The position numbers were made by a program, and so were the translations under genes. A stretch of DNA of 64,000 bases, from positions 704,082-768,081 of the forward strand of contig OZ242329.1 in assembly GCA_965208315.1 (NCBI GenBank), read 5' to 3'. Positions 10 through 44,117 of this stretch are shown piece after piece; within the stretch, counting starts at the first letter, position 1; every line of letters starts with the position of its first letter. Origin of the DNA: Chloroflexota bacterium. Lineage in GTDB: Bacteria > Chloroflexota > UBA11872 > VXOZ01. The notes beneath the pieces were generated by a model. That model was not told the DNA's origin. It saw only the letters and a list, made by a program, of their open reading frames with translations, and did not search any database.

Positions 10-1422
10 ATGACCCGAAATGTGTCCAAGTCTGCAAGGGATTCTATTGTGCGGCAAGTCGAGTTAGGGGCCGCGCGAGCGGATGAAGTGCTGCCGGAAC
101 GCGCCCCCCTTTGGGCGGGCGCCGCCAAGACGCAAATCACCCCGCCAATTGGCAGCCTGCTCCAGAGCGGCATGACGGTCGTGTCAACCGGCGTGCACGA
201 CGACCTCTACAGCACCGCCGTCGTCTTGGATGACGGCGAAACGAAGGTCGCGCTGGTAGGCAACGACATCATCTACATGGAAGCCCCGCTGGCGGCGGAA
301 ATTCGCGCCCGCATCGCTGAACAGACCGGAATTCTTGGCGAAAACGTCCTTTTGAATGCTTCTCACACACACTCCGGGCCGAACATCTGCGTCATTTCGC
401 CGTATGAGATCGACATGGAGTACCGTGAATGGCTGATCCGGCAAATCGTGGATACGGTGGCCAAAGCGGAGGCGGCCCTGGAACCCGCTTCACTGGCTAT
501 CGGAGAAGCGGAGGGCATGTTTGCCGTCAATCGCCGCAAGGTGGTGGACGGCACGTCGAGCATGCTGCCGAACTACGCGGCTACCGTCGACAACCGGGCG
601 CGGGTCTTGCGCTTTGATCGTCTGGATGGCTCGGTGCTGGCCGTAGTCTTCTCGGTCGCTTGCCACGGCACCGGCTTCGACTACCGAGGCAACGATTCCC
701 TCATAGGCGGCGACTACATTTCCCCGGCCAAAGACGAGATTGAGCGCTCGTTCGCCACGGAAGGAGCGCCCATTGCAGTCTTTCTCACTGGCTGCGGCGG
801 CAATATTCGCCCGCGCGTGCTCACGCCGGACGGTGAACGCTTTCATCCGTGCACGGCAGCGGAGATTGCGGCCCTCGGCCGCGGCGCGGGCGCGGTGGCC
901 GTGCGCGCCGCCCGCGAGAGCCACATGGCCGTGGGGTATCCGCTTGCGGTGGCTCGAGAGCAGTTTCCGTTGCCCTTTCAAGAGCCGCCAACTATTGAGG
1001 AACTGCGTGCCTACCGCGCGGACCCACGTCGCACCCGTTATCATCCCTGGGCCGACCGTCTCATAAGGAAACTGGAAAACGGCGAGGACCTACCGCGCAC
1101 CGTGGATATGGAAGTGCACGTCCTGCGGCTCGGCGGCGTTTGCATCATCGCTATGGGCGGAGAAGTGTTTGTGGAGATCGGGCTCGCCATTGAGCAGGCG
1201 CTGCAGGAGAATCACGAGGTGCAAATGGCACTCACCCTCGGCTACAGCAACTCGGAAGTGGGCTACGTTTGCACCGCCAGCGCCTATCCCGAAGGCGGTT
1301 CCGAACCGGCCGACTTCTACCGCTGGTTCTGGTATCCCGCGCCGTTCAAGCCGGAGACTGAGGACTTTGTCGTGGATCGGGCCGTCGCGCTCGCTCGGCG
1401 GGTTTGCGATCTACATAACTGA
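10..1422 (+). CDS. neutral/alkaline ceramidase-like hydrolase family protein
   Basis: 470-aa ORF. ITPPIG near the N-terminus and NASHTHSGP motif typical of bacterial neutral ceramidase N-domain proteins. ATG at 10. Confidence 0.6.
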   Translation: MTRNVSKSARDSIVRQVELGAARADEVLPERAPLWAGAAKTQITPPIGSLLQSGMTVVSTGVHDDLYSTAVVLDDGETKVALVGNDIIYMEAPLAAEIRARIAEQTGILGENVLLNASHTHSGPNICVISPYEIDMEYREWLIRQIVDTVAKAEAALEPASLAIGEAEGMFAVNRRKVVDGTSSMLPNYAATVDNRARVLRFDRLDGSVLAVVFSVACHGTGFDYRGNDSLIGGDYISPAKDEIERSFATEGAPIAVFLTGCGGNIRPRVLTPDGERFHPCTAAEIAALGRGAGAVAVRAARESHMAVGYPLAVAREQFPLPFQEPPTIEELRAYRADPRRTRYHPWADRLIRKLENGEDLPRTVDMEVHVLRLGGVCIIAMGGEVFVEIGLAIEQALQENHEVQMALTLGYSNSEVGYVCTASAYPEGGSEPADFYRWFWYPAPFKPETEDFVVDRAVALARRVCDLHN

Positions 1423-1472
1423 ATGATGAGACTGACGATAGTTGTAACGTCTTTGAATTGAGGAAACAGAGA

Positions 1473-2870
1473 ATGTCTGGAAAAGTGCGCATGGGCGCGG
1501 TGAAAGTGAACATCACACCGCCGGTAGGCACCCATCTCGGCGGGTACGGAAACCGCCAGAGACCTTCCGACGATATTCACGATGACCTCTTCGCTTCTGC
1601 CCATGTGTTTGCGGACGAGACAACGACCGTTGCCGTCGTCGGCGCGGATCTCGTCGACATATCACTGCAGCGTACGCGCGCCATTCGCAAGAAGATTGCG
1701 GCTGCGACGGGCATACCGGGCTCCCACGTCATGTTGGGCATGACTCATGCCCATAGCGGGCCCAATACAAAAGACTGGGGCGCGGGATTGCCGGGCGCCG
1801 GCGTCCCGTATCCGGGCGGTATACCGGATGAGGACCTCACCTATGCTTTGCCCATCCTCGACCATGACTACCTTGCCGAGTTGGAAAACAAGATCACCGG
1901 CGCGGTTGCCATGGCGGCGCAACGACTGCGGCCCGTCGTGGGTGACATAGGCACCGGCGAGTACGGCCTCGCCATTAACCGCCGGGGCGAGCGGAACGGC
2001 GAAGTGGTCAATTGCCCACGCCCCGATGGACTCGTTGATCACTCAGTGCCCGTGCTGCGCTTTGATGCGGAAAATGGCCATCCGGCGGGTATCATCTTCA
2101 ACTATGCCTGCCATCCGACGAGCATGAGCGATAACTACGCCATCAGCGCCGACTATATCGGCCCGTCTCGATCCTTCGTAGAGGAGGTCTATCGTGATGA
2201 CTGTGTAGTGGGCTTTCTGCTCGGCTGCCACGGCGACATTCGACCCAACTACACCGACGAAACGGGCAGCCGCTTTCGCTCGGCGACGTTTCCCGAGCTT
2301 GAGAGGGAAGGCCGCATCATGGGCGCGGAAGTTGTGAAGACTCGGGAGCGCATCAGCCCCCGTTCCCTTGAGGGAGTTGCCGCTGCGAGCACGCCCATCG
2401 TCGCCCCTTACAGCGAACCGCCAACCGCTGAGTACCTGTGCGCGTCCCTTGAAAGTGGGGCGTACCCCGATAAGGGAAGAGGGCTGTCATTCTCTAACGC
2501 CCGATGGGCTCAGCGCATTCTCGGTCAGCTCGAAGCCGGTACTTTGGCCGACGGCTTGGAAACAGAGCTCCAAGTGATCCGCGTCGGACACCTGGTATTC
2601 GTCGGCTTTCCCGGAGAATTCTTCTTGGAGTACGGCATGGAGACGCGCACGCGCGTCAAGGAACAGTTTGGGCTGGACGTCGTCCACGTAAGCATGGCCA
2701 ACGACATGATCGGCTATGTGGCTTCGGACCGAGAGATTCCGCGCCGCGGCTACGAAGTCGGCTCCTTTCATGACGATGAATTGGCACCGTCTTACTTCGA
2801 CTATGGCACCCAAGGCCTCTTTGTAAACCGGGCGCTTGAGCTTGTAGGCGAGACTCTTGCGAATTCATGA
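1473..2870 (+). CDS. neutral/alkaline ceramidase-like hydrolase family protein (tandem paralog)
   Basis: Same family as the upstream gene (NITPPVG, GMTHAHSGPN). Track ORF begins at TTG 1458. ATG 1473 is preceded by GAGGAAAC, a likely RBS. Confidence 0.6.
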   Translation: MSGKVRMGAVKVNITPPVGTHLGGYGNRQRPSDDIHDDLFASAHVFADETTTVAVVGADLVDISLQRTRAIRKKIAAATGIPGSHVMLGMTHAHSGPNTKDWGAGLPGAGVPYPGGIPDEDLTYALPILDHDYLAELENKITGAVAMAAQRLRPVVGDIGTGEYGLAINRRGERNGEVVNCPRPDGLVDHSVPVLRFDAENGHPAGIIFNYACHPTSMSDNYAISADYIGPSRSFVEEVYRDDCVVGFLLGCHGDIRPNYTDETGSRFRSATFPELEREGRIMGAEVVKTRERISPRSLEGVAAASTPIVAPYSEPPTAEYLCASLESGAYPDKGRGLSFSNARWAQRILGQLEAGTLADGLETELQVIRVGHLVFVGFPGEFFLEYGMETRTRVKEQFGLDVVHVSMANDMIGYVASDREIPRRGYEVGSFHDDELAPSYFDYGTQGLFVNRALELVGETLANS

Positions 2871-3084
2871 ACAGGCGCCAGGCCGATCCTTGAGACACGT
2901 CTAGTTCACGTAGACAGCCTCCTTGCCCAGGGCAACGTGGATCGATTGCGGTAACCAAGCTAGGGAACGACTGCTGGGTGGGACGGCAGGCACGATTTGA
3001 AGGCTTATAACAGCGCGTGCTACGCTTAGACAGACCTCTCACGTAGCTCTATGCTGCTCTTATGCTCCTACTGAAAGACCCTGC

Positions 3085-4053
3085 ATGCAGACCCCCATCG
3101 AACCCGGCATCTTTCTTCCCGCGCTGGAACTCTGGCTCGATTCGCGGCGCGTGAAGCCGGAAGGGTACATCTCTCATGCCCACAGCGACCACCTGGCCTC
3201 GCACCATCACGTGCTCGCCACCGCCGAGACCATAGCCCTCGCCGCCCAGCGGATGAAGATCAAGCAGGCGCAGCCGCTACGTTTCGGTGAGCCGCTGGAG
3301 CGCGACGGCTATACATTGACACTCCTCCCGGCAGGCCACTGCCTCGGCTCGGCGCAGGTTGTCATAGACGTGCGCGCTACCGGGGAACGTATCGTGTATA
3401 CGGGCGACCTGCACCTTGGGGATGATCTGTTCGGGCAACCGGCGGAACCCATTCCCTGCGACACGCTCATCATCGATGCCACGTTCGGACATCCGGACTA
3501 CGTCTTTCCCGCGCGCGCGACCGTAAGCGAGGACGTGTGCGCGTGGGTGGAAGAAACTCTCCATTACGGTGAAGTACCCGTTGTCCTCGCGTATAGCCTC
3601 GGTAAAGGCCAGGAAGCGCTGTACATCCTGCTTGAAGCCGGTTTCGAGGTGCAAGTGCACGAGTCCACGTTTGCGATGACAGCGGTATACCAACAAATGG
3701 GGGTGCGATTTCCTGGACGGTTCACCCGCTGGCGCGGCAGACGGGAGGCAGGCACGGTAGTGCTGATGCCGCCGCACGTGCGCAGCCGGCGCGAGATGTT
3801 TGCCCTTGCGCCGTACCGCACGCTTCTGCTCAGCGGCTGGGCGGCCGACCCATCCTGCAAGTATCGGATGCGCGTCGATGAGGCACTTCCCCTGAGCGAT
3901 CATTGCGACTGGAATCAACTCAACGACTACGTTGCGCAGTCGCAACCCCAGCGTGTGTTTACGATGTTTGGCCCGCAGCACTTTTCTGCTTTTCTGCGTG
4001 ATAAAGGTATCGATGCCTGGCCCCTGGAAGCCAGGCAACCGGCAATGTTCTGA
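3085..4053 (+). CDS. MBL-fold metallo-hydrolase (beta-CASP-like; possibly DNA-repair associated exonuclease)
   Basis: HAHSDH (HxHxDH) motif at the N-terminus. 322 aa. Confidence 0.5.
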   Translation: MQTPIEPGIFLPALELWLDSRRVKPEGYISHAHSDHLASHHHVLATAETIALAAQRMKIKQAQPLRFGEPLERDGYTLTLLPAGHCLGSAQVVIDVRATGERIVYTGDLHLGDDLFGQPAEPIPCDTLIIDATFGHPDYVFPARATVSEDVCAWVEETLHYGEVPVVLAYSLGKGQEALYILLEAGFEVQVHESTFAMTAVYQQMGVRFPGRFTRWRGRREAGTVVLMPPHVRSRREMFALAPYRTLLLSGWAADPSCKYRMRVDEALPLSDHCDWNQLNDYVAQSQPQRVFTMFGPQHFSAFLRDKGIDAWPLEARQPAMF

Positions 4054-4290
4054 GGCAAACAGCGCGCCACGGCATTTGGGTGTAATTCGTTTTGCACACT
4101 TGTCGCTTTGCTCAGGCGAACTCTTGAGCGATAATAGAGGCGGAGTGCTGACTGAGAGTAGGAATACCCCAACGTATGTGGCGCTAAGTTGATGTATTAG
4201 GTCATATAGTCGGTTGTGCATTCCCGCCACCACTTGGGCTATCCCCACCGATGAGACGGGCATTGGCAACTAACAGATGGAGGAGTAACT

Positions 4291-5076
4291 ATGGCACAGG
4301 CAACAGTTGAAGTAACGACCGAGGAACAAGCCTTCTACCAGGAGAACGGTTATCTCCTGATTAAGGGCTTGGTATCGGCTGAGGGCATAGCGAAACTCAA
4401 GGAGCGGTTGGAAGAGTACATGTACGACCGCTTGCCCGTGCCGGACGGTGTCAGGATCCAGGTTGAGCCGCGTGTGGAGCGTGGCGAAATGCCTTGGCCG
4501 GAGCGGCGCGGCGACGCGTACCGCAAGATTGACCGGCTCGTCATTCACGACGACCGCTTCCGCGCGTTGGGGACGATGCCCGGAGTGGTGGAACGCATGC
4601 AGGCGCTCATCGGCAGCAAGAACCTCAAGCTCTTTCGCGACTCCGCACTTATGAAACCGGCCCAGGTCGGTTCGGCCAAAGGCATGCACCAGGATTCGCC
4701 TTACTGGCCGATTGAGCCGATGGAGTTGAGCTCATGCTGGATGCCCTTTGAGCCTGCCACCCCGGAGAATGGTTGCATTACCGCCATTCCCGGCAGTCAC
4801 AAGCGTGGCCCAGTCCCTCATGAGCGCGTGCCGGACGACTATATCGTCAACGAAAGCAATTACGATCCCAACGACGTGATTGCTGTGCCGATGGAAGCGG
4901 GCGACGGTCTCTTCTTCCATAGCCTTCTGCTCCACGGCACCGCGCCCAATCTTACGGCGAACTCGCGGCGGGCAATCACGATGAGCTATATGGCAACCGA
5001 GTTTCACTACACCGGCGATTCCCCTAAGCCGGACTACCTGCTTATCTGCGGCGAGGACATCCCAGGCGGCGTCTAG
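4291..5076 (+). CDS. phytanoyl-CoA dioxygenase (PhyH) family Fe(II)/2OG oxygenase
   Basis: HQDSPYW (HxD) and distal LHGTAPN His. GGAGG RBS before the ATG. Confidence 0.65.
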   Translation: MAQATVEVTTEEQAFYQENGYLLIKGLVSAEGIAKLKERLEEYMYDRLPVPDGVRIQVEPRVERGEMPWPERRGDAYRKIDRLVIHDDRFRALGTMPGVVERMQALIGSKNLKLFRDSALMKPAQVGSAKGMHQDSPYWPIEPMELSSCWMPFEPATPENGCITAIPGSHKRGPVPHERVPDDYIVNESNYDPNDVIAVPMEAGDGLFFHSLLLHGTAPNLTANSRRAITMSYMATEFHYTGDSPKPDYLLICGEDIPGGV

Positions 5077-6893: not shown

Positions 6894-7106
6894 GGGGAAG
6901 AGTCCGGAAAGACTGTACCGCGCATGAATCGCGCGGAGGGAAGGCGAGCGACAATCAGAGATGGCGGTTTCTTGCAAGTCTACTGTGCTTGTTTGAATGC
7001 TACACCTCCCAAAGCGGATGCCCACGCTCAGGAAGTTGACATGAGTTAGCCGCCATCGTGCGAGTGAATGCTCTCTGCTCGTATTTCGTCCGGCCTGAAG
7101 CTCTGT

Positions 7107-8021
7107 TCAGCCTTGGGTGGTTGTGATCTGATCGACAAACTCCCGCACCACAGCCGCACAGTCCTCCGGTTGTTCCAGGGGGAGAAAGTGTGTGGCATCA
7201 GGCAAGAAGTCGTAGTCCACGCTAAGAATGTCGCTTAGATCTAACGTTGGAAGGTACGAGTAGGGCAGAGTGGGATCAGCCCCGATCACCTTTATGGGAC
7301 AGTGAAACTTCCCAAAATCCACAAGCACAGCGTAGGGGCTGGCGTAGTCCACAATCTGCGCTTCATACTCTGGCGGACACCGCAACTCAAAGCCGGATCC
7401 CCCTTCACTATTGCGCAACGTGGCCTGCGCGATGAGTCTAGTAGTGCCAGGAACGGTGTGCCGGAACGTCGGCGCAAAACTGAGCAGTTCCTCGAAGTCC
7501 TCCCTGGATTTGAAGTGAAAAGTGCGTCTTCTGGCATACCCTGCCGCGCGTGTCGCTGCCGCATCGAACTCCTCGTAGCTGGCTCCTGGCTTGCAGAGCG
7601 GGGGGTCAAAGAGGATGAGCGCCGCGTGCCGGCTGCCCTTCGTCGGCGAAACGAGCGTCGCCAGAGAAGAAACTGAGTGATAAACCCCAGTCAGGGGCTT
7701 CTCGCCAAAGTGGGACTCAATCGCATCCAGGATGAGGTCATGATCGTTGGCGAAGGTCGCAACAGTGTGCTCTCTTATCGAACTGACGGTGTTCCAGCCA
7801 TGGTTTCTCAAGTCATGCACGATGAGGTCGAAGTCGTCGGCGAGCAGAGACCAGAAGGGGTAGTACAGGTCGATGGCCAGACCGTTGCCATGGCACAGCA
7901 CAAGCCGCGGGCCGTCAGGATTGCCGTGGCGTCGCAGAGTGATAGTGGTTTCATCATCCACCGGAACGTCCAACGTGGCGAGGGGTTGGGGTACGTGCCA
8001 AATTGCATCCGAATCTGTCAT
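7107..8021 (-). CDS. alpha/beta-hydrolase fold protein (candidate product-release thioesterase/hydrolase of the PKS cluster)
   Basis: 304-aa ORF. VLCHGNG and TGVYHSVSS nucleophile-elbow-like region. Located just downstream of the PPTase and ACP genes. Confidence 0.4.
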   Translation of the reverse strand: MTDSDAIWHVPQPLATLDVPVDDETTITLRRHGNPDGPRLVLCHGNGLAIDLYYPFWSLLADDFDLIVHDLRNHGWNTVSSIREHTVATFANDHDLILDAIESHFGEKPLTGVYHSVSSLATLVSPTKGSRHAALILFDPPLCKPGASYEEFDAAATRAAGYARRRTFHFKSREDFEELLSFAPTFRHTVPGTTRLIAQATLRNSEGGSGFELRCPPEYEAQIVDYASPYAVLVDFGKFHCPIKVIGADPTLPYSYLPTLDLSDILSVDYDFLPDATHFLPLEQPEDCAAVVREFVDQITTTQG

Positions 8022-8028
8022 TGAGGTG

Positions 8029-8742
8029 CTAGTCTTTCCGCGCTGAGACTCCGCTCAATTCAATTGCTACAGCAGCCGCGAATTCCTGGTTGCCGAGGTC
8101 TTCGATTTGCCACGTGACCTCGGGCAGTCGTGGCAACTGTAGCATACCGCTCTCTCTGCCGCCTACCGTCGCTGCGGGAATCCTGATGCACGTTGCGTCC
8201 AGCACGAATCCTTCGCCCAACGCCTTCAATACCGCTTCTTTGAGGGTCCACAGCTTGAAAAAGAGGTGCGTTCGCGCTTGTCCTTGGGTCAAGGCAAGTG
8301 CCGTCTTCTCTTCCGGGCCAAGCACGGTGTCGATAAGCAAGCTGAGGTCACGCCGCGGGTCGCGTTCCTCGATGTCCACGCCCAAGCGTCCGGTTGGAGC
8401 GCACGCCACCAGCCCATGGTTCCCACTGTGGCTCACGTTGAAGCTAACGGAAGCGGGTTGGTCTTGCACCAGTGCGTACGGTTTTCCAAAGCGGGACGCG
8501 CGAAAGGCAAGCTGCTCGTTCTGGCAATGCAGCTCCTCACAGAGAATGGCGCGCAGAGCGGCGCGACACAGTGTAAAGCGACGGCGCGGCCCATCATACG
8601 CGAAGCGCTGCCGGCGAGCTTGCTCCTGGCCGTCGAGCCATCCCAAGGCTTCACTTTCCCATTCTTTATTCGGGTGATAAGTCAACGTGGATGATAGTCG
8701 TACTGCCAACGTCCCTGAAGTGGTTGCACCAACTGCTGTCAA
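8029..8742 (-). CDS. 4'-phosphopantetheinyl transferase, Sfp-type
   Basis: FNVSHSG, GVDIE and WTLKEAVLKALG motifs. Confidence 0.8.
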   Translation of the reverse strand: MTAVGATTSGTLAVRLSSTLTYHPNKEWESEALGWLDGQEQARRQRFAYDGPRRRFTLCRAALRAILCEELHCQNEQLAFRASRFGKPYALVQDQPASVSFNVSHSGNHGLVACAPTGRLGVDIEERDPRRDLSLLIDTVLGPEEKTALALTQGQARTHLFFKLWTLKEAVLKALGEGFVLDATCIRIPAATVGGRESGMLQLPRLPEVTWQIEDLGNQEFAAAVAIELSGVSARKD

Positions 8743-8802
8743 GTGTTGGCATAATGATACGCGATCAAAGTGGAAAGTATAGGCACTGGCGGATGTCGAA
8801 TT

Positions 8803-8834
8803 TCAAAAAAAGCGCCGCTCCTCATGGAGCGGCG
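8803..8834 (-). terminator. intrinsic terminator after stand-alone ACP gene
   Basis: GC hairpin GCGCCGCTCC-TCAT-GGAGCGGCG followed on the minus strand by a U7 tract. Confidence 0.55.
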
Positions 8835-8892
8835 ACTCTTCCGAACCAAGTGACGAAGACTCAGTCCCAAGTTTCATTGCTTAGGCGCCTGC

Positions 8893-9138
8893 CTAGGCAG
8901 CTTGCGAATCGAGGAACTCGATAAGCTCTTGTAGGTTGTTGATGGTTGGGCACTGCTCGCGAGAAAACTCCAGTTTGAACTCCTGAGCGACCACTTTGGT
9001 AAAGGCGACCACATCCATGGAAGATACGCCCGCCTCCGTCAGACTGACGCTCAAATCGAGCGATGAACTGAGCGGCTTTCCGTCTACTTCAAGATTGTCA
9101 GCGACGAGTTGCCTAATTCGATCTTCCGTTGAAGCCAT
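8893..9138 (-). CDS. stand-alone acyl carrier protein
   Basis: 81 aa, acidic, four-helix ACP-like. Phosphopantetheine serine context LTEAGVSSMDVV. AGGAGGA RBS upstream. Confidence 0.75.
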   Translation of the reverse strand: MASTEDRIRQLVADNLEVDGKPLSSSLDLSVSLTEAGVSSMDVVAFTKVVAQEFKLEFSREQCPTINNLQELIEFLDSQAA

Positions 9139-9310
9139 GCCTGTTTCCTCCTCTTTTGAAATGCTTCATTGCATAGAACTGTTGGCAGCATAGCAAGACA
9201 AGCCGTACTCGTCAAATCTACTGTACCGTCTCTTGTCTACGCTTTTAAACATTGGGCGTAATTCTGGGGCACAATCCTGAAAATCAATCCTGAGACGTAA
9301 TCGCCTTTCT

Positions 9311-12300
9311 TCAGGTCGATGCAATTCCCTTCGATGCCGCTATCCAGTGGCGGCGGCGCTGGAAGGGATAGCTCGGCAGCCCGATGCGCCGCCGAGACTC
9401 CCCGGTGAAGAGTCCTTTGAGTGAGATTGTGAGGCCGGTTTCGTATGCCTTTGCCACCGCCTCGAGAAACCCACGGTCAGAGTCGCAGGGCGGACTATCG
9501 GCTGAAGGACGTAAAAGGCTCTCGATTATCACCGGCATGGGGGCGTTAGACGCCGCTCCGGTCTGAACCGGCCACAAGTCTTGTATGGTAGGAGTGAGCC
9601 CTGGCTGCGGACCAATCTCGATAACCAGGTCTACGCCCAGTTCCGCCAACGTTTCGATGCAGCTTTGGAGATTCGCTGTCTCACCTGCTTGCTGCTCCCA
9701 GTAGGTCCCCTCGAGCAATGCTTCCGGTTCTGCCACGCGCCCCGTTACGCTGCTCACCAGCGGTACGGACGGTTGTGCAGCCTCAACGCCCGCAAAGGCC
9801 GCGTTCAGTTCACTTGAGTTCACTGTATCCGCCTGACCGGCAGTGGCGGCTGTCGACAAAGCGCCTCGCGCTGCGGCAAGGCGCAACCCATCCTCAAGAC
9901 CGAATACACCCGCTGCTTGCGCTGCCGCAAGCTCGCCGAGGTCGTGGCCCACGACCACGCTCGGTTGAATGCCTATGCTCGCCCACAGCGCCGTGAGCGC
10001 GCACTCGAGCGCGTATACGGCCGGCTGCGCCCACGTTGGGTCGTCCAGATCTGCTGCGTCACCGGCCCGACCAAACATCACGTCCAACAACGAGGTACTG
10101 CATTCCTTCAAGAGAAAAGCGTCACAGCGGTCGAGAACCGCGCGAACCACGGGATCTTGATCGTAGAGCGCTTTGCCCATGCCAACCCATTGGCTACCCT
10201 GATCGGTAAACGCAAAGGCTACTGTACTTACTGCCCGCGGTTCAGGTTCCTCGAGGTCTCCTTCCGTTTCGGCGAGATCTTCTAACTGTTCTCGCAATTC
10301 CATAAAATCTTGGAACGTTAATCCTGCACGATGCGGGAAATGGCTGCGTCCGACGCTGGCAGTCCAAGCCATATCCGAGAGCAGGGAAGCAGCAGCGGGG
10401 TCTGCCGGGTCAAGAACCTTGGCATAGCCATCGAGCCAGGTCAAATAGCGTTCTGCCAACTGGCGCAGAGCCTGACGGGTCTTGCCGGAGAGAGGCAACA
10501 GCTTTGTTGATCGTTCAGATTGCGCCTCCGCTACGGGAATTTCTGCGGCATCTTCCGGCAAGGGAGCAGGAACCTCACGTGATGCGCCGGCCGGCCAGCG
10601 GTCATTGGCATGTTCGGCGGAATCATCTTCCGGCGCGCTGTAGCCTTCTACCACCACGTGCGCGTTTGCGCCTGAAATTCCAAAGACATTGACACTTGCG
10701 CGCTGTGGTTGCTTGGCAGCGCGAGGCCAATCCATGGCCTCGGACGTCACCCGCACCGGCAACCGCTCCCAATCGATGTCGGGATTCGGCGTGTGGAAGT
10801 TGAGGTGCCTTGGAATCAGCCCCCGATTCATTGCCAGGACAGTCTTGATCAGGCTGGCGACGCCGCCAGCCGCCTCCAGGTGGCCGATGTTCGTCTTGAC
10901 CGAGCCGATCAACAGGGGGTTTTCAGCCTCGCGGCCTCGGCCATAGACGTTGGCTGCGGCATTGAGTTCGACCGCGTCGCCCAATGCTGTGCCGGGGCCG
11001 TGGGCTTCAAAGTAGTCCACCTCGGCCGGTGCGATACCTGCCTGCGCCAATGCTTCCTCCATAGCGCGCTCTTGGGCCGGCCCGTTGGGTAGCGTGAGAC
11101 CCAAACCGGCGCCGTTCTGGTTCACTGCCGAACCACGCACCACGCCCCAGATGCGGTCGCCGTCCGCTTGAGCATCGCTCAGGCGCTTCAATATCACCAT
11201 GCCGCAGCCCTCGCCCCGCACGTATCCATCCGCTGATGCGTCGAACGTTCTGCACTGTCCGCTCAGCGAAAGCATGCCTGCGTCCGCCAAGAATCGCAGT
11301 ACTGACTGTGAAAGCGCCGCATTTACGCCTCCAGCCAGAGCCATGTCTATCTCGCCACGCTGCAAACTCGTAGCCGCTTGGTGCACCGCCACAAGCGATG
11401 CGGCGCAGGCCAACTCCAGCGGTACGGCCGGCCCTTCCAAACCGAGCGCAAAGGCAATCCGCCCCACGGTTACGCCGCCTGAAGTACCCAGGAAGTCATC
11501 GTCACTACCGCTGGCAGTAATGACGCTCCGATACTCACTGCCGCCAACTCCTGCGTAGACACCGGTGCGGCTCCCCCGTAGACTATCGGGGTCAATCCCG
11601 GCATCCTCGAGGGCTTGCCAGCTCGTCTCCAACAGCAGCCGCTGCTGTGGGTCCATCATGCGTGCCTCGATGGGAGAAATGCGGAAGAACCGCGAATCAA
11701 AGAGGTCAATTCCTTCCAGGAATGCCCCGTGTCGCATCGCAGCGTCTTTGGCCTCTGGGTCGCCGGCGATTCCGTTCCAGGATCCGGCGTCCTGACGCCC
11801 CTCTGTTACCATGTTTCGTTCCGATTGCATCAGCCTCCAGAAGCCATCAAGATCCTCTGCCCCCGGTACCCGGCACGCCATGCCGACAATGGCTATCCCC
11901 TCCTCTACGCTCGCAGCCTGCGGGCGCTGCTCCTGGACGGGCTGCTCGGGCAGTGTTGCCGGTACGTCAGCACCCGTGAATCCGTCGGCGCTGCCAAGTT
12001 CACCTGCCAGGTGGCGGGCAAGACCCGAGATACTCGGATAGTCGAAGACCACTGTATTGGATGCCACATACTCACCGGCAAAGCCGCGGTTGATGCGGTT
12101 GCGCAACTCTACCGCCATCAGCGAATCCATGCCCAAGTCGGAGAACTCGACGGTTGGCGCGGGAGTTGTGTTCAATCTCAGCACTGCTTGCACTTCCTGT
12201 TGCAGGAAGGCCGCCAGCACGTCCTCGCGCTCCGCCGGTGGCGCGTTCCGTAGCCGGGACAACAGGTCTTCCGACGTTGCTGCTTCATCGGCTTGCTCGT

Positions 12301-15300
12301 CAGTGGCCGAGGCGAGCAGGTCTTCCAAGAAAAGCGGACGATCCTCGACAGCCTCTGCAAACACCGACCAATCCATCGACATCACCACGGAGGTTGTGGC
12401 GTCCTGTCGCACCAGCAACTCAAGCGCCTTGATGCCTTGTTGCGGCGTAAACCAGCGACCGCCGAGGGCCGCCCGCCGCTGCTCGATCCGCTCGCGTTGT
12501 TCCGCGGCCTCGCCGATCTCCGACCACGCGCCCCAGGCAATGGCTTGTCCCGGCAGACCCAACGCGCGACGGTAGCCGGCAAGCTGGTCCAGAAAGGCAT
12601 TGGCCGCGGCATGGTTCGCCTGGCCGGGATTGCCCATGACACCGACCCGGCTCGAAAAGAGGATGAACAGATCCAGATCACAGTCCAGGGTTGCGCGGTG
12701 CAGGTGCCAAGCCCCCAGAATCTTCGGCCACAGCACGCGCTCGAAGCTCTCCCAGGTCTGGTTGGTAAGCGCGGCGTCCGACAGCACGCCCACACTGTGA
12801 ATGACACCGCCCAGTGGCGGCAAGCTGGCATCGATGCGCGCCAACATGGCGTCGATGGCTGCAGTATCCGTCACGTCTGCCAGTTCGACTTCGATCCTGA
12901 CCCCGCGATCACGCAGGGCAGCGATGGCTGCCTCCGCCTCGGCATCGGGATTACGGCGGCCGTTCAGCACGATTGTGCCCGCGCCGCAAGCCGCGAGCCA
13001 TTCCGCCACGGCGCAGCCGATGCCGCCCAGACCGCCGGTCACCAGGTAGGTGCGGTCCTGACGCAACTGACCCCGCAAGAGCGGAGGCGGCGTGAGCACG
13101 ATCTTGCCAATGTGCCGGGCTGAGCGCATGAATCCCAAAGCGGCTCCCGCCTCGGCCAGCGGCCAGCGGCTATGGATGAGCGGCGTGAGGTCACCGGATA
13201 CAATGCCATCCATGACCTCGCGCAGTACTTCCCCTACCCACGCCGGGTCGGTTTTCTTCAGAACATCCAGTTCCAGGATGTCGTACTTCACGTCCGGTCG
13301 GACGGCCGCCATCTCCTCGTGGCTGAGGATGTCCCGCCTGGCTAATTCGACAAAGCGTCCGCCCTGCGCCAGGCAGGCTAAACTGGCTTCGATAAAGCCC
13401 TCGCTTGTGAGGCTGTTCAGCACTACATGCACACCCTCGCCGCCGGTGGCTGCGAGGATTTCATCGCCAAACGCGGTCGTGCGGCTGTCGAAAATGTGGT
13501 TGATGCCGACTGACCGGAGATATGCCTGCTTTGGCGCGCTGGCCGTGGCGAATACTTCCACGCCGGCAGCTTGCGCCAACTGGATCGCTGCCAGTCCCAC
13601 GCCACCCGCGCCCGCATGGATCAGTACTCTGTCTCCCGGCTCCAGCCCGGAGTAATGGTATGACAGTGCAGCCGACACGAACGCGCTGGGCACGGTAGCC
13701 AACGCCGAGACTGACATGCCTTCAGGGGCCGGCGCCACCAACTCCTCATGCGTGACCATTTCCGGCGCAAATGCGCCGAAACCTAGTCCAACCACGCTAT
13801 CGCCGACGGACACATTCGAGACATCTGAGCCAACGTCGAGAATGCGACCGCACATCTCCCGGCCCAGATTGCCTTCCTCGATAAAGCCAAGCGAGCGGAA
13901 GACGTCCCAGAAATTCAGCCCGGTGGCCTCGACTGCGACGCGCACCTCATTCGGCTCCAAGGAGTGCGCGGGCAGCATCTTGATCTCCGGCTCGTCGAAC
14001 ACACCTCCTTTGTTAGGGACTAATACCCATTCCGATTCCTCTGGCAGGGAAAGGCGCTCAGACGCGGCAGCGGGCCGCAGCAGGCGTGCCGCATGACGGC
14101 TTCCCAACCGGTAGGCGATGTGGTTCTCGCGGTCGGGATACATGAGCTCATTCGCGAGGTCTGACAGCAGTTCAGGCTCGGCGGGATCCAAATCGATCAT
14201 CCGGGGCTGCAGATGCGGGGCTTCCAAGGATACAACCTTGCCGAGACCCCACAGAGGGGCGCCGGCCAGTTCGCCGGCGTTCTCGCGTTCCAACACTTGT
14301 GCCCCGCGCGTGAAAAACCACACACCGTTTGCGGGAATCACGTCGGATTCGGCCACACCTTGTACCAGCGCCAGCGCACTTGCTCCTGCGCGTTTCACGT
14401 CCGCCGCAATCTCTTGAGTGGTTGCTTCCGCTCCGTGACCGTCCAAGCCCGCGAGGTGCACTACGCCGCTGAATGGAACATCCTGCGGTAGGCTCTCGAT
14501 CAGCGTGCGCCACGCTTCACGAGACGCCATGTCAAATGCAGTTTTGCGAATCGCGTTGCCAACCACTGCCGTCACACCGCTTGCAGGCGCTGCGTCGCTT
14601 GCCAGGACGACTGTTTGATTTCGCTCCGCCAATTGCGCCGCGAGTTCTTCCGCCACGCTACCATTGTCTGCGGTCAGCACCCACACGCCGGGTGGTTCAT
14701 CAATCTTTGCCGGACCGGAAGCTATGATCACACCCTTATCCGGCGTCTTGGATGAGTCGGCCTCGTCCGGCCCTAAGACTTCCGCTTCCGCGAAACCTGC
14801 GTCACTCAGAGCTTGGCGCCACACCGCAGGGCTTGCCAAGGCGTGATGGGGGCGGTAGTCGTCGGCAAACCGCCACCAGCCGTCCAACTGTCCAAACGTC
14901 AGGTCCATCCAGCCCAGGCCGCTGAGATTCTCCAGCGCAATCAACTGTCCCGATGGCGCTAGCAGCGCCCGGCAATGCGCCAGCGTCTCTTCGAGATAGC
15001 GCGTGGCGTGCAGCACGTTGGAGGCAATCAATAGGTCATAGCCGTGGGCAGCGTAGCCCTGCTCGATGGGGTCTTTTTCAATGTCCAACGGACGGTATTC
15101 GATGCACCCGCCGCCATCGCCAAATCTCGCTTCCGCTTCTGCAAAGAAACCCGCTGAGATATCCGTGTACATGTAATCAAACTGGCCAGCAGGTAGCTCC
15201 GGCAGCACGGAGGCGGTTGCCGATCCCGTGCCCGCGCCGACCTCGATGACCCGCAGCCGCCGTCCTGTGGGCAGAGCGGCTACCAATGCCTGAACCGCGT

Positions 15301-18300
15301 CCGCCAGCATCCGGTTTGCCGCGCGGGCCACCGGCGCTTTCAGGTAGAGGTCGGCCGCCGTCGGTTCCCCGCTGCTGAAGAGCAGCGTCAAAGGGTCTTC
15401 CCGGCCGCGGAGCACCTCAGCCAGGGCGAGGCCGGACCGCCGGAAGAGGCCGATTTCAATCTGGCCCTGAGGGTATTGGCCTGTCATCCAATCTGTGAAT
15501 GCTTCAATGTCGCTTGGCATCTCTTCCGGCAGCGGATCATCCGGGCCTACGACGACGACAAAGCCGTCGCTCGTTTCCTCAAGCACTTCTGACTTTGCGA
15601 GCATTTCAAATAGCCGGCGGAAAAGGCGCGTGTGCTCCGGGAGGACGTCAAGCTGCTGCCGCACCTCCTCCGGGTCCACGACAGCGCCCTTGACGCGCTG
15701 CCAGCCCAATTCCTCTAACGTCGCGAGCGCGCGGGACCGAGACCAGCGCTCCAAGTCCGCCAGCAGGGCGTCTCTGCCTTGCGGATCGACTTCCGCGTCC
15801 GTCAGGTATCCGGTGAACAATTGCGTATGGGCCGCAATCTCGGACGGATTTGGGAAGAAGCCCGCAGGCAATACTCCAGACTCAAGCGCATGTTCGCGCC
15901 AGACGACCTCGTACAGCAGGTCGTCGACACCCTCTTCCCCTGCAACCGCCGCCAGCAAGGCCGCCTGTGTGGCGCGCTTCACCGTGTATCCGTTAATCTC
16001 ACCGACTAATGCGCCATTTGGATCGTAGATACGTACTTCGCCACTCAAGACTTCGGGCGGATCACCCCCTTCTGATTCGGCGTCCTGAGATGCTTCACTC
16101 ATGACCACGTGGCAGATCACGCGCTCCGGCAGTCCTCCGGCAAGCCACAGACGCTCCCAGCCGAAGGGCAAATAGGTTGCCTCGCCCGGGGCGCCGGTCA
16201 TGTTGCGTGCAACGCCTACGACCTGAAAGCAGCCATCCAGCACAAGCGGGTGCACGTCTAGGTCATTGCGATCCAAACCCTCGGGCAGGGAGATTTCTGC
16301 CAAAGCCTCGCCAGGACCGGACCAGACCTTGCCAAGCGTACGGAAGAACGGACCCAGGTTGATACCGGTTGCAGCCTTCGCGCCGTATAGGCAGATTTAT
16401 CAGCGGGTGAGAGACTTGCTCGCAGGCTATCCAGGTCAAGGTGTGCTGCGGTCTCCGGCGGTGCAGCGCCCGACGAGACTTGGGCCTCCACATGCAGGGT
16501 CCATTCGCCCTCAGTTCCCTTGCTGTAAATCTGGACGTGGCGCGACGCCGTTTCCTCTGATGCGTCGAGCAAAACCTGCACATGCCGGACCGCATCCTCG
16601 ACCCCGTCACTCGAGTCATTCTCAGCAAATACCAGTGGGCTGTGCAGTTGCATGTCTTCAATCGCTATCGGGCCGTTTCCATCCAGGAACGCTAACGCGG
16701 CTGCCATTGCGCCGTAGAGCGCCCCCGGTACCACGAGTCGTCCGAAGACGCGGTGGTCTTGCAGCCAGGCCGGGTCTGATGGGTATACTTCTGTCTCGAA
16801 GATGATTTCGCCGCGGGCTGATTCATGGCGAAGGCCGAGCAAGGGGTGATCGGTGGTTGTTCGCCGTCGTTTTGCCGGTTGCAGCCAGTGGCGTTCGCGC
16901 TGGAACGGGTAGCCCGGCAAGGAGATGCGACGCCGGGTCTCTCCGGCGAATAAGCCCGCGAAAGAGACTTCGAGTCCCGCCTCGTAGGCCGCGGCTACCG
17001 CATCCACAAAGCTATTTTCAGATTCAGGTGATGATCCATCTCGAGGCGGACGCCGCAGGCTAGAGAGCACAACCGGCGTCCCGACAGCATCTTGGTTCGA
17101 TGCCGCATCAGGCCAGGCCAGCGTCGTCATGGGGCCCAGCACGGCGTGCGGGCCTATCTCGATCACGAGGTCTACGTTGCATTCAGCCAAGACTCGGACT
17201 CCGCTGGCAAACGCCACTGGCTCGCGCGCGTGCCGCCGCCAGTAAGCGCCGTCCAGCGCCATGCCGGAATCGACGGCACTGCCAGTCAGGTTGCTGATCA
17301 CAGTCAAGGTGGGGGAACCAATTGCCACATCATCCAGAGCAGCTTCCAACTCATCCAGGGCCGGTTCCACCAAGGGACTGTGGAAAGCGCGGGTCGTGTT
17401 GAGCCGCCGTACCCGTACCCCCTCCGATTCAAAGCGCTTCACGAGAGATTCAATGTTTGCAACCGGCCCGCTGACCACTGTGTGGGCGCCGTTGTCCGCC
17501 GCAAGGCTGAGACCGATGCCGTCGGACACCGCGTTGAGATCGTCAACCGCTGCCGCCACGCGCGACGCCGGGGCAAAGACGGCAGCCATCGTACCGGGTT
17601 CTGTTTCGGACAGGAGGGTGCCGCGCCGCGCGGCAAACCGCATCCCGTCTTCCAGGCTGAAGACGCCCGTGGCCTGTGCGCGGCCAGTTCCCCGACGCTA
17701 TGTCCCAGCACCACGCTCGGTTGGATGCCCACGCTTGCCCAGAGCGCCGTCAAAGCGCACTCCAGCGCGTACAAGGCCGGCTGCTCCCACGCGGTATCGC
17801 CCAAGTCGTCGCTCGCGCCGGGCCGCCCGAACATAACGTCCAGGAGAGAGGCACCTCTTTCTTCCTGGAATACCGCTTCACAACGGTCCAGCACCGCTCT
17901 CGCTACCGGCTCCGTCTCGTAGAGGGCCTTGCCCATGCCAACCCACTGGCTCCCTTGCCCCGTGTAGACGAACGCCACTTGAGATGGCGGTGAGGACTTC
18001 TCTGTAGCGGTGGCCTCAGTCAGCTCGCTGAGCCGCTCTTTCAATGAGGCGATGTCGTGAAAGACGGCGCTCGCACGGTGGTCGAAGTGGCCCCGTCCGA
18101 TACCCGCTGTCCATGACATGTCCGCAAGCAAAGACTCCAAGTCTGCGACTTCTTCGGAAGTCTCTGCCGCCCGTTCGTCGAGCCACGCGAGATACCGTTG
18201 CGCAAGTTCCCGGAGCGCGCCCTCGGACTTGGCCGACAGTGGCAGGAACCGGGCTTGGCGTTGTGCAAACTCTTCCTGTTGCGGGGCTGAAGCGGTCACT

Positions 18301-19754
18301 GGCTCAGGTAGCGAGACCGCCACAGCCTGTGCCGCGCCCGCCGTCTGAAGCTCCTGACTGGGTTCACCGTTTGTGCCGCGATACTCCCCCACCACAATGT
18401 GGGCATTCGTCCCGGAAATCCCGAAAGAATTCACCCCCGCGAGGCGCGGCCGTTGGCGGTCTTGCGGCCAGTCCATCATGTCTGATGTTATCTGCAGCGG
18501 CAGACGCTCCCAGTCCGTACTGGGATTGGGGTCACGGAAGTGCAGGTGTTTGGGAATCACCCCTGTATTCACCACCAGCGCCGCTTTGATGACCCCTGCG
18601 ATGCCGGCCGCGGATTCCAAGTGGCCGACGTTTGTTTTCACAGAGCCTACGAGCAACGGATGGTTGGGGTCGCGCTCGCGGCCGTACACATTGGCCACGG
18701 CATCTATTTCGATGGGATCGCCAACGGCGGTTCCTGTGCCGTGCGCCTCAAGATAATCGACCTGCGAGGGGAGTACGCCTGCGTCAGCCAAGGCGGTTTC
18801 CATCACTTGTTCCAACGCGGGCGTGTGTGGAACGGTCAGGCCGACGCTGGCGCCGCCGTGATTTACCGCTGAGCTGCGAATCACCGCCCAGATGCGATCC
18901 CCGTCAGCCTCCGCCTCGCTGAGCCGCTTCAAGACAACGACCCCGCAGCCTTCGCCTCGCACGTAGCCGTCCGCAGAGGCATCGAAGGTCTTGCACTGGC
19001 CTTCCGGGGACAGCATCATCGACTCGGCGCGCAATTCGTAAATGCGACCGTTTAAAATGGCCTGCACGCCGCCCGCGATGGCGAGGTCCGCTTTGCCGTG
19101 CTGCAGGTCTGCCACCGCGTCATTTACGGCCACCATGGCTGAGGCGCACGCAGCGTCCACAGCCTTTGCCGGTCCCATGAGACCCAGAACAAAGGAGACT
19201 CGACCGCTGGTGCCATTGAGGTTGGTGCCGCTCAGGGCGTAGAGAGAGCCCGCAGCCTCGCCAGGCTTGGTGGAGTCTACGACCAGCATGCGGTATTCAT
19301 CGTTGCTGATGCCGGTGTACACCCCGGTGCGGCTGCCTTTCAGTCGGCTGGGATCGATGCCCGCGTCCTCGAGGGCGAGCCAGCTTGCCTCAAGCATCAT
19401 GCGTTGCTGTGGGTCTAGCATCTCGGCCTCAACCGGCGAAATGCGGAAGAACTCCGCGTCAAACTTGTCGATGTCATCGACAAAGGCACCGAAGCGGCAT
19501 GCCTGGTTTTGCACGTCAAGATCGCGGAAGATTTCCCCCATGCGACCCTCACCGGAAGCGAGGTCGCCTTCGGTGACCGCATTCTTGCCATCTAGCAGGA
19601 ACTGCCAGAAGGAGTCCAAGTCACCGGCGCCGGGAAAGCGGCACGCCATACCGACAATGGCAATTGGTTCGTCAGGTTGTGAAGTATTCTTATTCACAGG
19701 ACGCGGCCGGCTAGTCGCGTGTGTAGGGCTACTTTGAATATCAGCTGACCCCAT
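9311..19754 (-). CDS. type I polyketide synthase, KS-AT-DH-cMT-ER-KR-ACP-KS-AT(degenerate); reading frame interrupted by two apparent 1-nt indels (possible pseudogene or sequencing errors)
   Basis: Three overlapping minus-strand ORFs form one gene (17439-19760, 16258-17643, 9311-16303). Motifs: KS DAACAS/EAHGTGT/NVGHLE; AT GHSVGE then AFHSPL; DH HRVFGRLVVPG and LDGCFQ; MT VIEVGAGTG; ER HAGAGGVG; KR TGGLGGIG; ACP LGMDSL; KS2 ELACAAS/EAHGPGT; AT2 GHDLGE. Likely start ATG 19754 after GAAAGG. Confidence 0.85.
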
Positions 19755-19943
19755 TGTCAACCTTTCATGGCGTATGCACTGAGCGCTGCGACAGCTCTTT
19801 TGCTTGCTATCGAGCGGATGTGTGATTCGGCTATATTAGTGCAGGGCACGTCGCACATTTGGCGACAACAGCTTTAGAGGTATTTTACACCGAATTGCTG
19901 CCTTGATTCGAGGGTGCTTTTATACCAAAGCAGCGTGAGGCGA

Positions 19944-27338: not shown

Positions 27339-27413
27339 TGGTAGCGGGGGAGGGATTCGAACCCTCGACCTTCAGGTTATGAGCCTGACGAGCTGCCACT
27401 GCTCCACCCCGCG
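27339..27413 (-). tRNA. tRNA-Met (CAT), initiator-like
   Basis: Manual fold: CGCGGGG acceptor, A11:U24, CUCAUAA anticodon loop, TTCGAAT T-loop, encoded CCA. Non-Watson-Crick 1:72 pair (C:U). Confidence 0.85.
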
Positions 27414-27461: not shown

Positions 27462-27797
27462 GAGATGCGTGTTGAGTAGACCGATAAGCCCCATTCTGTC
27501 GCGGACAGCCATCTGTCTTGGGCGGCAGCTTGCGCCGCGCCTCCTTGCGGCCTACCCGGGACTCCGCGAGCAGCCTCTGCGTCCCTCTCTTGGCCTTGCT
27601 CCGGGTAGAGGTTACCCTTTTCACTCCGGCTAATGCCCCACTTGCGTGGAAGCAAGACCGGTCTTGGTCTCTGTGGCCCTATTCCTCGCCTCGCGGCGGA
27701 CGGGAGTTACCCGCTACCCTGCTCTGTGGAGTGGGGACTTTCCTCACTACGCCCACGCTCAATGCGCACGCGCTGCGCGGCTGTCTGGTCTACTCAG
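27462..27797 (-). ncRNA. rnpB: RNase P RNA, bacterial type A
   Basis: Minus-strand GAGGAAAGUCC, CACAGAGCAGGGUAGCGGGUAA, GCCACAGAGAC, AGCAAGGCCAAGAGAGG and ACAGAAUGGGGCUUAUCGG motifs. P1 pairing GAGUAGACC/GGUCUACUC. Confidence 0.9.
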
Positions 27798-30100: not shown

Positions 30101-31627
<1,527 letters not shown>

Positions 31628-31763
31628 ACAAAGCGTTCACAAAAGTAAATGTACCGCCTCATCCCAAATAGCCCAACCCCCGACTCTCCAAACAGATAAA
31701 CACCCTTACCTTCATCACTCTTTACCTGTTAACGTGCCGCCTGTCTAAAAACAGGCAAAAATC

Positions 31764-31793: not shown

Positions 31794-32019
31794 CTGCGTT
31801 TGGCAGGGGAATAAGTAGCTATTGACTTTTCACTTTCTCCTTCGCGCTTGAAGGTGAACGTCCACGGACGAGGGTTGTTCCCGGTTCTCTGTTGCTCCTT
31901 GCAGATAGTGTCTGCCTCGATGCAAATTGCTGGCAGTTGGCCGTCATATACGACACATATCCTCCGCTTCTTGGGCGTTTCCACTACTGGCGTCATTAGT
32001 CTCTCCTTGGAGGTGTCGT

Positions 32020-37935: not shown

Positions 37936-38010
37936 GGTGGCTGTAGCTCAACAGGTTAGAGCTCTGGACTGTGGCTCCAGCGGTTGGGGGTTCGAGTCCC
38001 CTCAGCCACC
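37936..38010 (+). tRNA. tRNA-His (GTG)
   Basis: Manual fold: G-1 opposite C73, U8 A9, D-arm GCTC/GAGC, anticodon loop CUGUGGC, T-loop TTCGAGT. No encoded CCA. Followed by a hairpin and T6. Confidence 0.85.
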
Positions 38011-38142
38011 CCCTTACTCTCACTTCACCAAATCTTCTTGCCGAAGGTTACCCTATGCGGTCAGCGAATGCAGGCTGCCCGCATGGGTTTTTTCTTACGT
38101 ACCCGTCTCAAGCGGGACTGTCCAAAACACAAGTTTGAGTGG

Positions 38143-44107: not shown

Positions 44108-44117
44108 GGACTACGAT

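Follow-up and report, generated by a model that had tools for sequence, protein, structure and literature searches.

The 64-kb window analysed here is a 64,000-nt stretch of contig OZ242329.1 of a Chloroflexota bacterium, and contains a type I polyketide synthase (PKS) locus on its minus strand, at positions 19760-7107. Domains were assigned by Pfam on the window open reading frames (ORFs), with E-values of 1e-7 to 1e-81, far past chance. The order found was ketosynthase (KS), acyltransferase (AT), dehydratase (DH), C-methyltransferase (cMT), enoylreductase (ER), ketoreductase (KR), acyl carrier protein (ACP), KS and AT, followed by genes for a PP-binding protein, a phosphopantetheinyl transferase (PPTase) and an Abhydrolase_6 protein. 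This is the domain order described in the initial annotation, and the stand-alone ACP, Sfp-type PPTase and alpha/beta hydrolase that it had placed downstream were also recovered. No ACP, thioesterase (TE) or reductase (R) domain was found at the C-terminus of the PKS after the second KS and AT (KS2 and AT2), as previously stated, and the protein stops 10 residues past the post-AT linker motif YPFQRRRHW. Similarly, the absence of a loading module, FAAL or CoA-ligase from the window holds for ORFs of at least 200 aa, none of which contains an AMP-binding, FAAL or CoA-ligase domain.

However, the PKS is not the single 10.4-kb gene made up of in-frame pieces that was first described. It is covered by three overlapping ORFs, namely 19760-17439 (773 aa, KS and the first third of AT), 17643-16258 (461 aa, the remainder of AT and the N-terminal half of DH) and 16303-9311 (2330 aa, the C-terminal half of DH, then cMT, ER, KR, ACP, KS and a partial AT). 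The corresponding open stretches (19760-17442, 17697-16261 and 16396-9314) are in three different frames, and the first ORF continues out of frame to 17439. Addition of one base at ~17679/17678 and one at ~16390/16389 leads to a 3483-aa protein without an internal stop, and two 1-nt deletions therefore separate the three frames. The sites of the deletions were aligned against two close relatives, L004 and L005 (Chloroflexota MAG Plut_88905, with a hydrolase 91 % identical to the window hydrolase), both of which have a continuous reading frame at both sites.

The genes for the PKS, ACP, PPTase and hydrolase and a further gene for an NCS2 permease adjoin one another in the window, and these five fit the letters supA-E of the sup (sponge symbiont ubiquitous PKS) cluster. 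The name goes back to Fieseler et al. (2007, AEM 73:2144), to whom PMC3908369, PMC4245539 and PMC9426513 refer, and denotes an unusual, small monomodular type I PKS group that is ubiquitous in high-microbial-abundance sponges and dominates their KS amplicons (PMC3908369, PMC4245539). Table 1 of PMC3908369 gives SupE (ABE03914, clone pAPKS18) as a permease, and we infer that SupB, SupC and SupD are the ACP, the PPTase and the hydrolase. Full-text literature searches found no description of the domain architecture of supA-E. Based on architecture, gene content, host distribution and the secondary literature, the window cassette is very probably a member of the sup family. Hence, the arrangement that the initial annotation could not map to a named system, in what it called a compact cluster of non-canonical architecture, corresponds to a type that already has a name, with a product that is so far hypothetical, and the cassette is not a compact novelty and extends to a fifth gene. 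The features of the cassette, including the permease gene that falls outside the coordinates first given for the cluster, are listed in Table 1.

Table 1. Features of the sup-like cassette in the window and location of the two deletions in supA
Feature	Position	Strand	Remarks
supA piece 1 (frame a)	17679..19760	-	KS1 and N-terminal half of AT1 to GHSVGELAA
KS1	about 19670-18381	-	Cys codon 19148-19146
AT1 nucleophile Ser codon	17699-17697	-	within GHSVGELAA
Frameshift 1, 1-nt deletion in AT1	17677..17680	-	GCCGC-GCACAG vs GCTGCAGCGCAG in L004/L005
supA piece 2 (frame b)	16390..17678	-	AT1 C-terminal half (RAFHS, linker YPFQRERHW) and DH N-terminal half (HRVFGRLVVP)
Frameshift 2, 1-nt deletion in DH	16388..16391	-	GCCTAT-ACGG vs GCCTATTACGG in L004/L005
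supA piece 3 (frame c)	9311..16389	-	DH C-terminal half through AT0; stop codon 9313-9311
cMT	15412-14735	-	in supA piece 3
ER	14032-13109	-	in supA piece 3
KR	13054-12389	-	His replacing catalytic Tyr, 12613-12611
ACP1	12226-12023	-	Ser 12124-12122
KS2	11905-10643	-	Cys 11407-11405
KS-AT linker	10510-10223	-	between KS2 and AT0
Degenerate AT0 (= AT2)	10222-9344	-	Asp at nucleophile position 9943-9941
supB-like discrete ACP, 81 aa	8893..9138	-	PP-binding; phosphopantetheine Ser in GVSSMD
supC-like Sfp/HetI-type PPTase, 237 aa	8029..8742	-	ACPS/AASDHPPT_N; true start may be 8709, as in L084
supD-like alpha/beta hydrolase, 304 aa	7107..8021	-	Abhydrolase_6
supE-like NCS2-family permease, 578 aa	5157..6893	+	convergent with the hydrolase gene; within the conserved cassette

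Loci encoding the hydrolase were scanned in one genome per species. At least 590 were found, and the synteny counts refer to the 80 that were retrieved. The PKS, ACP and hydrolase genes are colinear in 59 of these 80 loci, the ACP gene is just upstream of the hydrolase gene in 69, the PPTase gene lies between these two in 52 and an NCS2-type permease gene adjoins the cassette in 46. L001 and L002 encode an intact PKS (3476 aa and 3455 aa, respectively), followed in each case by the ACP, PPTase, hydrolase and permease. The search for syntenic clusters suggested in the initial annotation thus revealed a strongly conserved PKS-ACP-hydrolase arrangement, which indicates that the cluster is real. 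All 80 inspected loci are in metagenome-assembled genomes (MAGs), and these represent ten or more lineages, among them Chloroflexota/Dehalococcoidia/SAR202, Latescibacterota, Gemmatimonadota, Acidobacteriota, Binatia, Acidimicrobiia (including Ca. Poriferisocius), Thermodesulfobacteriota and Opitutales. Judged by isolate name, many of these MAGs are from series of sponge or coral origin. This spread across phyla agrees with the report of SUP clusters in MAGs of Chloroflexota, Spirochaetota, Proteobacteria and Acidobacteriota (PMC9426513) and with bioRxiv 10.1101/2023.01.09.523365, in which the sup KS clade is without a MIBiG member.

Conservation of residues in the PKS was scored in 119 sequences, made up of 118 full-length orthologues (3273-3481 aa) and the window supA. 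In module 1, the Cys/His/His of KS1, the Gln/Ser/Arg/His of AT1 and the phosphopantetheine Ser of ACP1 are present in 119/119. KS1 includes the DPQQR motif in 117 and EAHGTGT in all 119. The AT1 motifs GHS[VIL]GE and xAFHS were found in about 115/119, and this combination is the malonyl-type signature according to established AT specificity motifs. The motifs of the reductive and methylating domains were scored in 39 orthologues, where the HxxxGxxxxP and DxxxQ motifs of DH, the ExGxGxG and NVLHAT motifs of cMT and the nucleotide-binding motifs of ER and KR are conserved. Both KS1 and KS2 score best against CurL (655 and 583 bits, respectively), then DEBS, then MAS, LovB and FAS, and by these scores they are KSs of the modular type, not of the polyunsaturated fatty acid (PUFA) or fatty acid synthase (FAS) type.

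No domain of the PKS is better conserved than the KR (76 % mean identity), whose best solved relative is MAS (166 bits). The Ser, Lys and Asn of the catalytic tetrad are invariant. However, the position of the catalytic Tyr (YxxxN) is occupied by His (GQANHAAAN) in 119/119 sequences, and this His aligns with the Tyr of the MAS and AmphB KR structures. To our knowledge, all characterised KRs have the catalytic Tyr, and we know of none with a Tyr to His replacement. This universally conserved His might conceivably define a new functional variant of ketoreductase.

The second KS-AT unit is an internal paralogue of the first (50 % identity), and its two parts have fared differently. KS2 retains Cys/His/His in 119/119, with 68 % mean identity and 22 % invariant columns, and as the active-site Cys is kept, KS2 is not a chain length factor (CLF). 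In contrast, AT2 has no invariant columns and its remnant middle shares only 39 % mean identity. It is 228-286 aa long compared to 354 aa for AT1, and the ~70 residues that are missing include the small subdomain and the xAFHS histidine motif. The window AT2 reads GHDLG where GHSxG is expected, and of the 119 sequences 93 have Gly at the nucleophile position, 18 have Asp, 4 Ser, 3 Asn and 1 Glu. In ten orthologues from Dehalococcoidia and Acidimicrobiia (L048, L052, L055, L058, L060, L066, L068, L077, L078 and L080, with PKS C-termini at about 8570-8860), AT2 has been wholly excised. In these, KS2 and the linker, closed by the post-AT motif YPFQRRRxW, make up a terminal unit of about 590-608 aa.

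The three marks of a canonical cis-AT for a second module, namely the GHSxG Ser, the catalytic His motif and the small subdomain, are therefore not found together in AT2. Judged by its motifs, AT2 is a structural relic that is predicted to be catalytically dead, and module 2 would then effectively be an AT-less KS served by the discrete ACP. Of the terminal KS-AT didomain paired with a discrete ACP that was first described, the KS is intact and the AT is not a working domain. The invariant catalytic residues of KS2 and its level of identity, retained even where AT0 has been deleted, indicate that KS2 is under selection and needs no adjoining AT.

The discrete ACP conserves its Ser in 78/78 sequences, and it matches AcpP models weakly, at scores under the cut-off. 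Of the gene products of the cassette, the hydrolase is the best conserved, with 77 % mean column identity among 16 sequences from several phyla, and His115-Ser116, Asp249, Asp271 and His278 are invariant. More than 2700 homologues were found, and none of the best 120 falls below 64 % identity to it. A structure model built from an alignment of 121 sequences reached a pLDDT (predicted local distance difference test) of 76, compared to 51 from 16 sequences. Its Foldseek neighbours are generic alpha/beta hydrolases (TM 0.5-0.67, 13-20 % identity), and no specific function could be assigned from Foldseek, PDB or NCBIfam sequence searches.

The first of the two deletions in the window supA is directly after the AT1 active site GHSVGELAA, and the sequence there is not a homopolymer. 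Both deletions are also found in a second contig, L084 (ENA contig ROBB21-1_SAMN13943215_METAG-scaffold_2464, 33.6 kb), which is 99.94 % identical to positions 1-26301 of the window, with 13 single-nucleotide polymorphisms (SNPs) and a 2-nt gap. The PKS is called in L084 as 771 + 394 + 2330 aa, and the exact 2330-aa ORF is recorded there. The supB, supC, supD and supE genes are uninterrupted in the window genome, and ~16 kb of flanking window genes is free of frameshifts, with gene lengths that agree with those of L001. Programmed frameshifting was dismissed as no slippery motif was seen at either site when the sequence was inspected by eye, the intact orthologues have one extra base and the first break is inside the core of AT1. 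We therefore consider it likely that the window supA is a genuine, recent pseudogene.

Disruption or loss of supA was also seen in other close relatives, and among the closest of these only L004/L001 has an intact PKS (3476 aa). L005 carries a TGG to TAG change at a conserved Trp of AT1 (793-795), and in L007 the reading frame is shifted where AT0 begins, at about 7830-8010. In L006, supA has been cleanly deleted (7076-9101) between a solute-binding-protein gene and the ACP gene. The genes upstream of the deletion, for a molybdopterin oxidoreductase, an ABC transporter, an iron-containing alcohol dehydrogenase (Fe-ADH) and the solute-binding protein, are the same as in the window, and they are followed directly by those for the ACP, PPTase, hydrolase, permease and PhyH. 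The supB-E genes are intact in all three. As synonymous sites are saturated in the pairwise dN/dS comparison for L006, this loss could not be dated. Among the other PKS-bearing loci, disruption was seen in 4/64, counting only the visible part of the gene. A further set of short KS ORFs (170-400 aa; P0250, P0266, P0297, P0303, P0323, P0346 and P0354) that are 59-93 % identical to KS1 is found on contigs of 0.6-4.8 Mb, and these ORFs are not truncated by a contig end. Fragmented supA is perhaps common in other MAGs, though the list of matches is biased to short proteins and full-length orthologues are missing from it.

In 12 of the 80 loci (L006, L011, L019, L036, L038, L039, L046, L056, L067, L073, L074 and L082), the hydrolase gene, nearly always with the ACP and/or PPTase gene, has no PKS gene within 10 kb, and the ACP Ser is kept in all ten of these that have an ACP match. 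Together with the apparently repeated decay of supA in this Chloroflexota clade, where supB-E are retained, this raises the rather doubtful possibility that the ACP/hydrolase/permease half of the cassette may have a selectable role independent of the PKS. If so, this role might be, for example, the processing or uptake of a branched lipid from neighbouring symbionts, and supA loss would be of the 'Black Queen' type, in a consortium with sup in many of its phyla. The loss of supA in single symbiont lineages is relevant to the question of whether the sponge holobiont shares the product as a common good. The decay of supA is also a warning against calling sup clusters functional from KS matches alone.

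For the relatives in which the PKS is intact, the motifs suggest the following route. AT1 would be the only working acyltransferase and would load malonate. Module 1 would condense, C-methylate with S-adenosylmethionine (SAM) and fully reduce, acting either once or iteratively, which would lead to a saturated alpha-methyl-branched acyl-ACP1. KS2 would take the chain from ACP1 and perform one more decarboxylative condensation onto malonyl-SupB. As the adjoining AT is a structural relic, malonyl loading of SupB would fall to an enzyme acting in trans, either AT1 or the FabD of the cell. Both carrier proteins would be primed by SupC. SupB appears AcpP-like, and type II FAS enzymes may reduce or elongate the chain further, which would place the methyl group in mid-chain. 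SupD would release or transfer the acyl chain. The abstract of Fieseler 2007 reportedly likens the ORFs, which include a methyltransferase, to genes of animal fatty acid synthase and takes the architecture to suggest methyl-branched fatty acids, and the sup cluster is said to have been treated also by Hochmuth et al. (2010, ChemBioChem 11:2572). Later papers give methyl-branched fatty acids as the 'supposed' or 'proposed' product of sup (PMC8156983, PMC4245539), with the branch in mid-chain in PMC4245539, and the methyl-branched lipid put forward in the initial annotation agrees with this published hypothesis for the family (PMC4245539, PMC9864124), though the chemistry is read from the domains.

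Other routes and relationships can be considered. KS2 and SupB might yield an unreduced beta-ketoacyl-SupB that is hydrolysed by SupD, with decarboxylation then leading to a methyl-branched methyl ketone and no hand-over to type II FAS. There is no KR, DH or ER after KS2 in a protein that stops at the post-AT linker, a dedicated hydrolase is the most conserved part of the cassette and CurM TE, a decarboxylating PKS thioesterase, is among the fold neighbours of the hydrolase (TM about 0.62-0.64), all of which would suit this route. However, the fold matches are to generic hydrolases of low identity, the reducing domains of module 1 or FAS II could act on SupB in trans, and the literature reports a correlation with mid-chain-branched fatty acids and not with ketones (PMC4245539, PMC4210886), and we regard ketone formation as distinctly unlikely. 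As far as the model goes, the fold neighbours do not choose between release of a fatty acid and of a beta-keto acid. It is highly improbable that the enzyme is an iterative synthase of the MAS or fungal highly reducing PKS (HR-PKS) kind with KS2-AT0 as an inert remnant of a duplication. The conservation of KS2, even where AT0 is gone, the malonyl-type and not methylmalonyl-type AT1, and the higher scores of both KSs against modular CurL than against MAS, LovB or FAS outweigh the features that would favour it, namely a module 1 order identical to that of HR-PKS, the KR match to MAS and the origin of KS2-AT2 as a paralogue of KS1-AT1. That the locus encodes a genuinely new, unnamed bimodular PKS, with a fully reducing module and a functional KS-AT that loads a trans ACP, we find scarcely credible. 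Although the Pfam order reads this way and there is no characterised relative of the MIBiG type, the same five-gene cassette is found in hundreds of sponge-symbiont genomes and matches the cluster named in 2007, while AT2 is without the catalytic Ser in 115/119 and without the His motif, and is gone altogether in ten orthologues.

The best explanation as a whole, in which we have good confidence, is that the locus is a sup family member in a Chloroflexota symbiont and that its supA was most likely inactivated recently. We consider it unlikely that the gene is intact in the organism, with the two frameshifts representing sequencing or assembly errors in a functional sup cluster. There are just two lesions, one of which falls in a TT run, and the repaired 10.4 kb has no in-frame stop. 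Frameshifts were also found in 15 % of the supA sequences in a 454 amplicon study that left their origin undecided (PMC4245539). However, both deletions recur in L084, which was assembled separately and is 13 SNPs apart, the first is outside any homopolymer, the flanking genes are free of frameshifts and the closest relatives carry other, independent disruptions, including a stop-codon substitution and a whole-gene deletion. Several observations nevertheless count against the explanation favoured here. L084 may derive from reads of the same sample and so may not be fully independent. Compared with L005 and with L004, the PKS has a dN/dS of 0.14 in each case, as low as in the neighbouring genes and without visible relaxation of constraint, and any inactivation must be very recent, or the lesions are errors. 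No protein named as a Sup protein was among the homologues listed for the hydrolase, the 2330-aa PKS piece or the KS1 amplicon region. With His in place of the catalytic Tyr of KR, full reduction by module 1 is an assumption, and SupD is outside the canonical type II thioesterase family, its closest solved folds being generic. The product and the order of the steps are likewise deduced from the domains.

Beyond the permease gene, two tandem ceramidase-like genes, a gene for a metallo-beta-lactamase (MBL)-fold protein and one for a PhyH-family dioxygenase are found in window 10-5076 on the plus strand. This neighbourhood is shared only with the closest Chloroflexota relatives, L001/L004, L005, L006 and L007. 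The PhyH and ceramidase-like genes, and those for the solute-binding protein, Fe-ADH and ABC transporter, accompany the cassette only in these relatives and were not included in it. Elsewhere in the window, there is a complete 16S rRNA gene at 30103-31629 (minus strand). No match to 23S or 5S rRNA was found anywhere in the 64 kb, and the rRNA operon thus appears to be unlinked. The genes for RNase P RNA (27469-27796, minus strand) and tRNA-Met (27339-27413, minus strand) are 2-3 kb from the 16S rRNA gene, and an IS1595-family (ISXO2-like) transposase gene (31927-32877, plus strand) is directly beside it. A tRNA-His gene is located at 37936-38013 (plus strand). At 42869-44897 (plus strand), a gene for an N6_N4_Mtase DNA methyltransferase is followed by one for a TdeIII-type restriction endonuclease, in a region of lower GC content (0.52-0.54), and these look like a type II restriction-modification pair.

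The locus was also compared to other known systems. PUFA and heterocyst-glycolipid synthases were set aside, as there is no KS-CLF pair, the carrier domains are a single ACP1 and one discrete ACP with no tandem ACPs, and the DH is of the PKS and not the FabA type. In AT-less modules of the trans-AT type, a KS with a linker or vestigial AT is likewise combined with a separate ACP, and the extender unit is loaded in trans. However, the window KS2 is a duplicate of the cis-AT KS1 and does not belong to a trans-AT clade, and the window cassette does not encode a discrete AT dedicated to this task, the presumed trans donor being AT1 of the same protein or FabD.

MAS and MAS-like PKSs (PDB 9d2z, 5bp1 and 5bp4) share a fully reducing module for methyl-branched lipids, with the shared module order given as KS-AT-DH-ER-KR-ACP, and MAS is the best solved relative of the KR. 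They differ in that the branches come from methylmalonyl-CoA, in the absence of a cMT, a second KS and a discrete ACP, and in having the canonical Tyr in KR. The window KS domains are also nearer to CurL and DEBS than to MAS. With a malonyl-type AT1, a cMT and a second KS, the window PKS was not classified as MAS-like. The fungal HR-PKSs (LovB, PDB 7cpx, and LovF) have the same order, KS-AT-DH-cMT-ER-KR-ACP, and a SAM-derived alpha-methyl branch. However, they are distant in sequence (334-351 bits compared to 583-655 bits for CurL), do not include a terminal KS-AT0 and have different release partners.

The swf cluster, like the window PKS, is a widespread sponge-symbiont-specific, single-module FAS-like PKS, and its product is not known (PMC3908369). 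It consists of SwfA (KS-AT-DH-ER-KR-ACP), SwfB (reductase-sulfotransferase) and SwfC (radical SAM) (PMC3908369). However, the cMT, second KS, discrete ACP, PPTase and hydrolase that are all present in the window are missing from swf, and its KS has an altered DPQQR motif and reads HATGT where the window KS1 has DPQQR and HGTGT. The locus was not assigned to swf.

The closest correspondence is with sup itself. Common to both are a small type I PKS that resembles FAS and whose one complete module is fully reducing and C-methylating, a set of accessory genes with a permease gene at its end, and a distribution over many phyla of the sponge microbiome, including Chloroflexota. The window KS1 includes the DPQQR and HGTGT primer motifs, and primers based on DPQQ amplified sup (PMC4245539), whereas swfA is without the standard DPQQR and HGTGT (PMC3908369). 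The window locus differs in that supA is split by two frameshifts and in flanks (two ceramidase-like genes, PhyH and the MBL-fold gene) that are specific to this Chloroflexota clade, and one of its close relatives is from a coral (Porites lutea) MAG series. Clusters of the sup type have been recognised since 2007 as the dominant PKS of sponge metagenomes, there is little new here as a discovery, and the window locus is an ordinary representative of a known family, in which the synthase is probably inactivated. For the sup product, which is still hypothetical, the comparative data sharpen what to test, namely AT1 as the one working acyltransferase, the conserved KS2 with no need of an adjoining AT, the His of KR and the hydrolase as the best conserved component.

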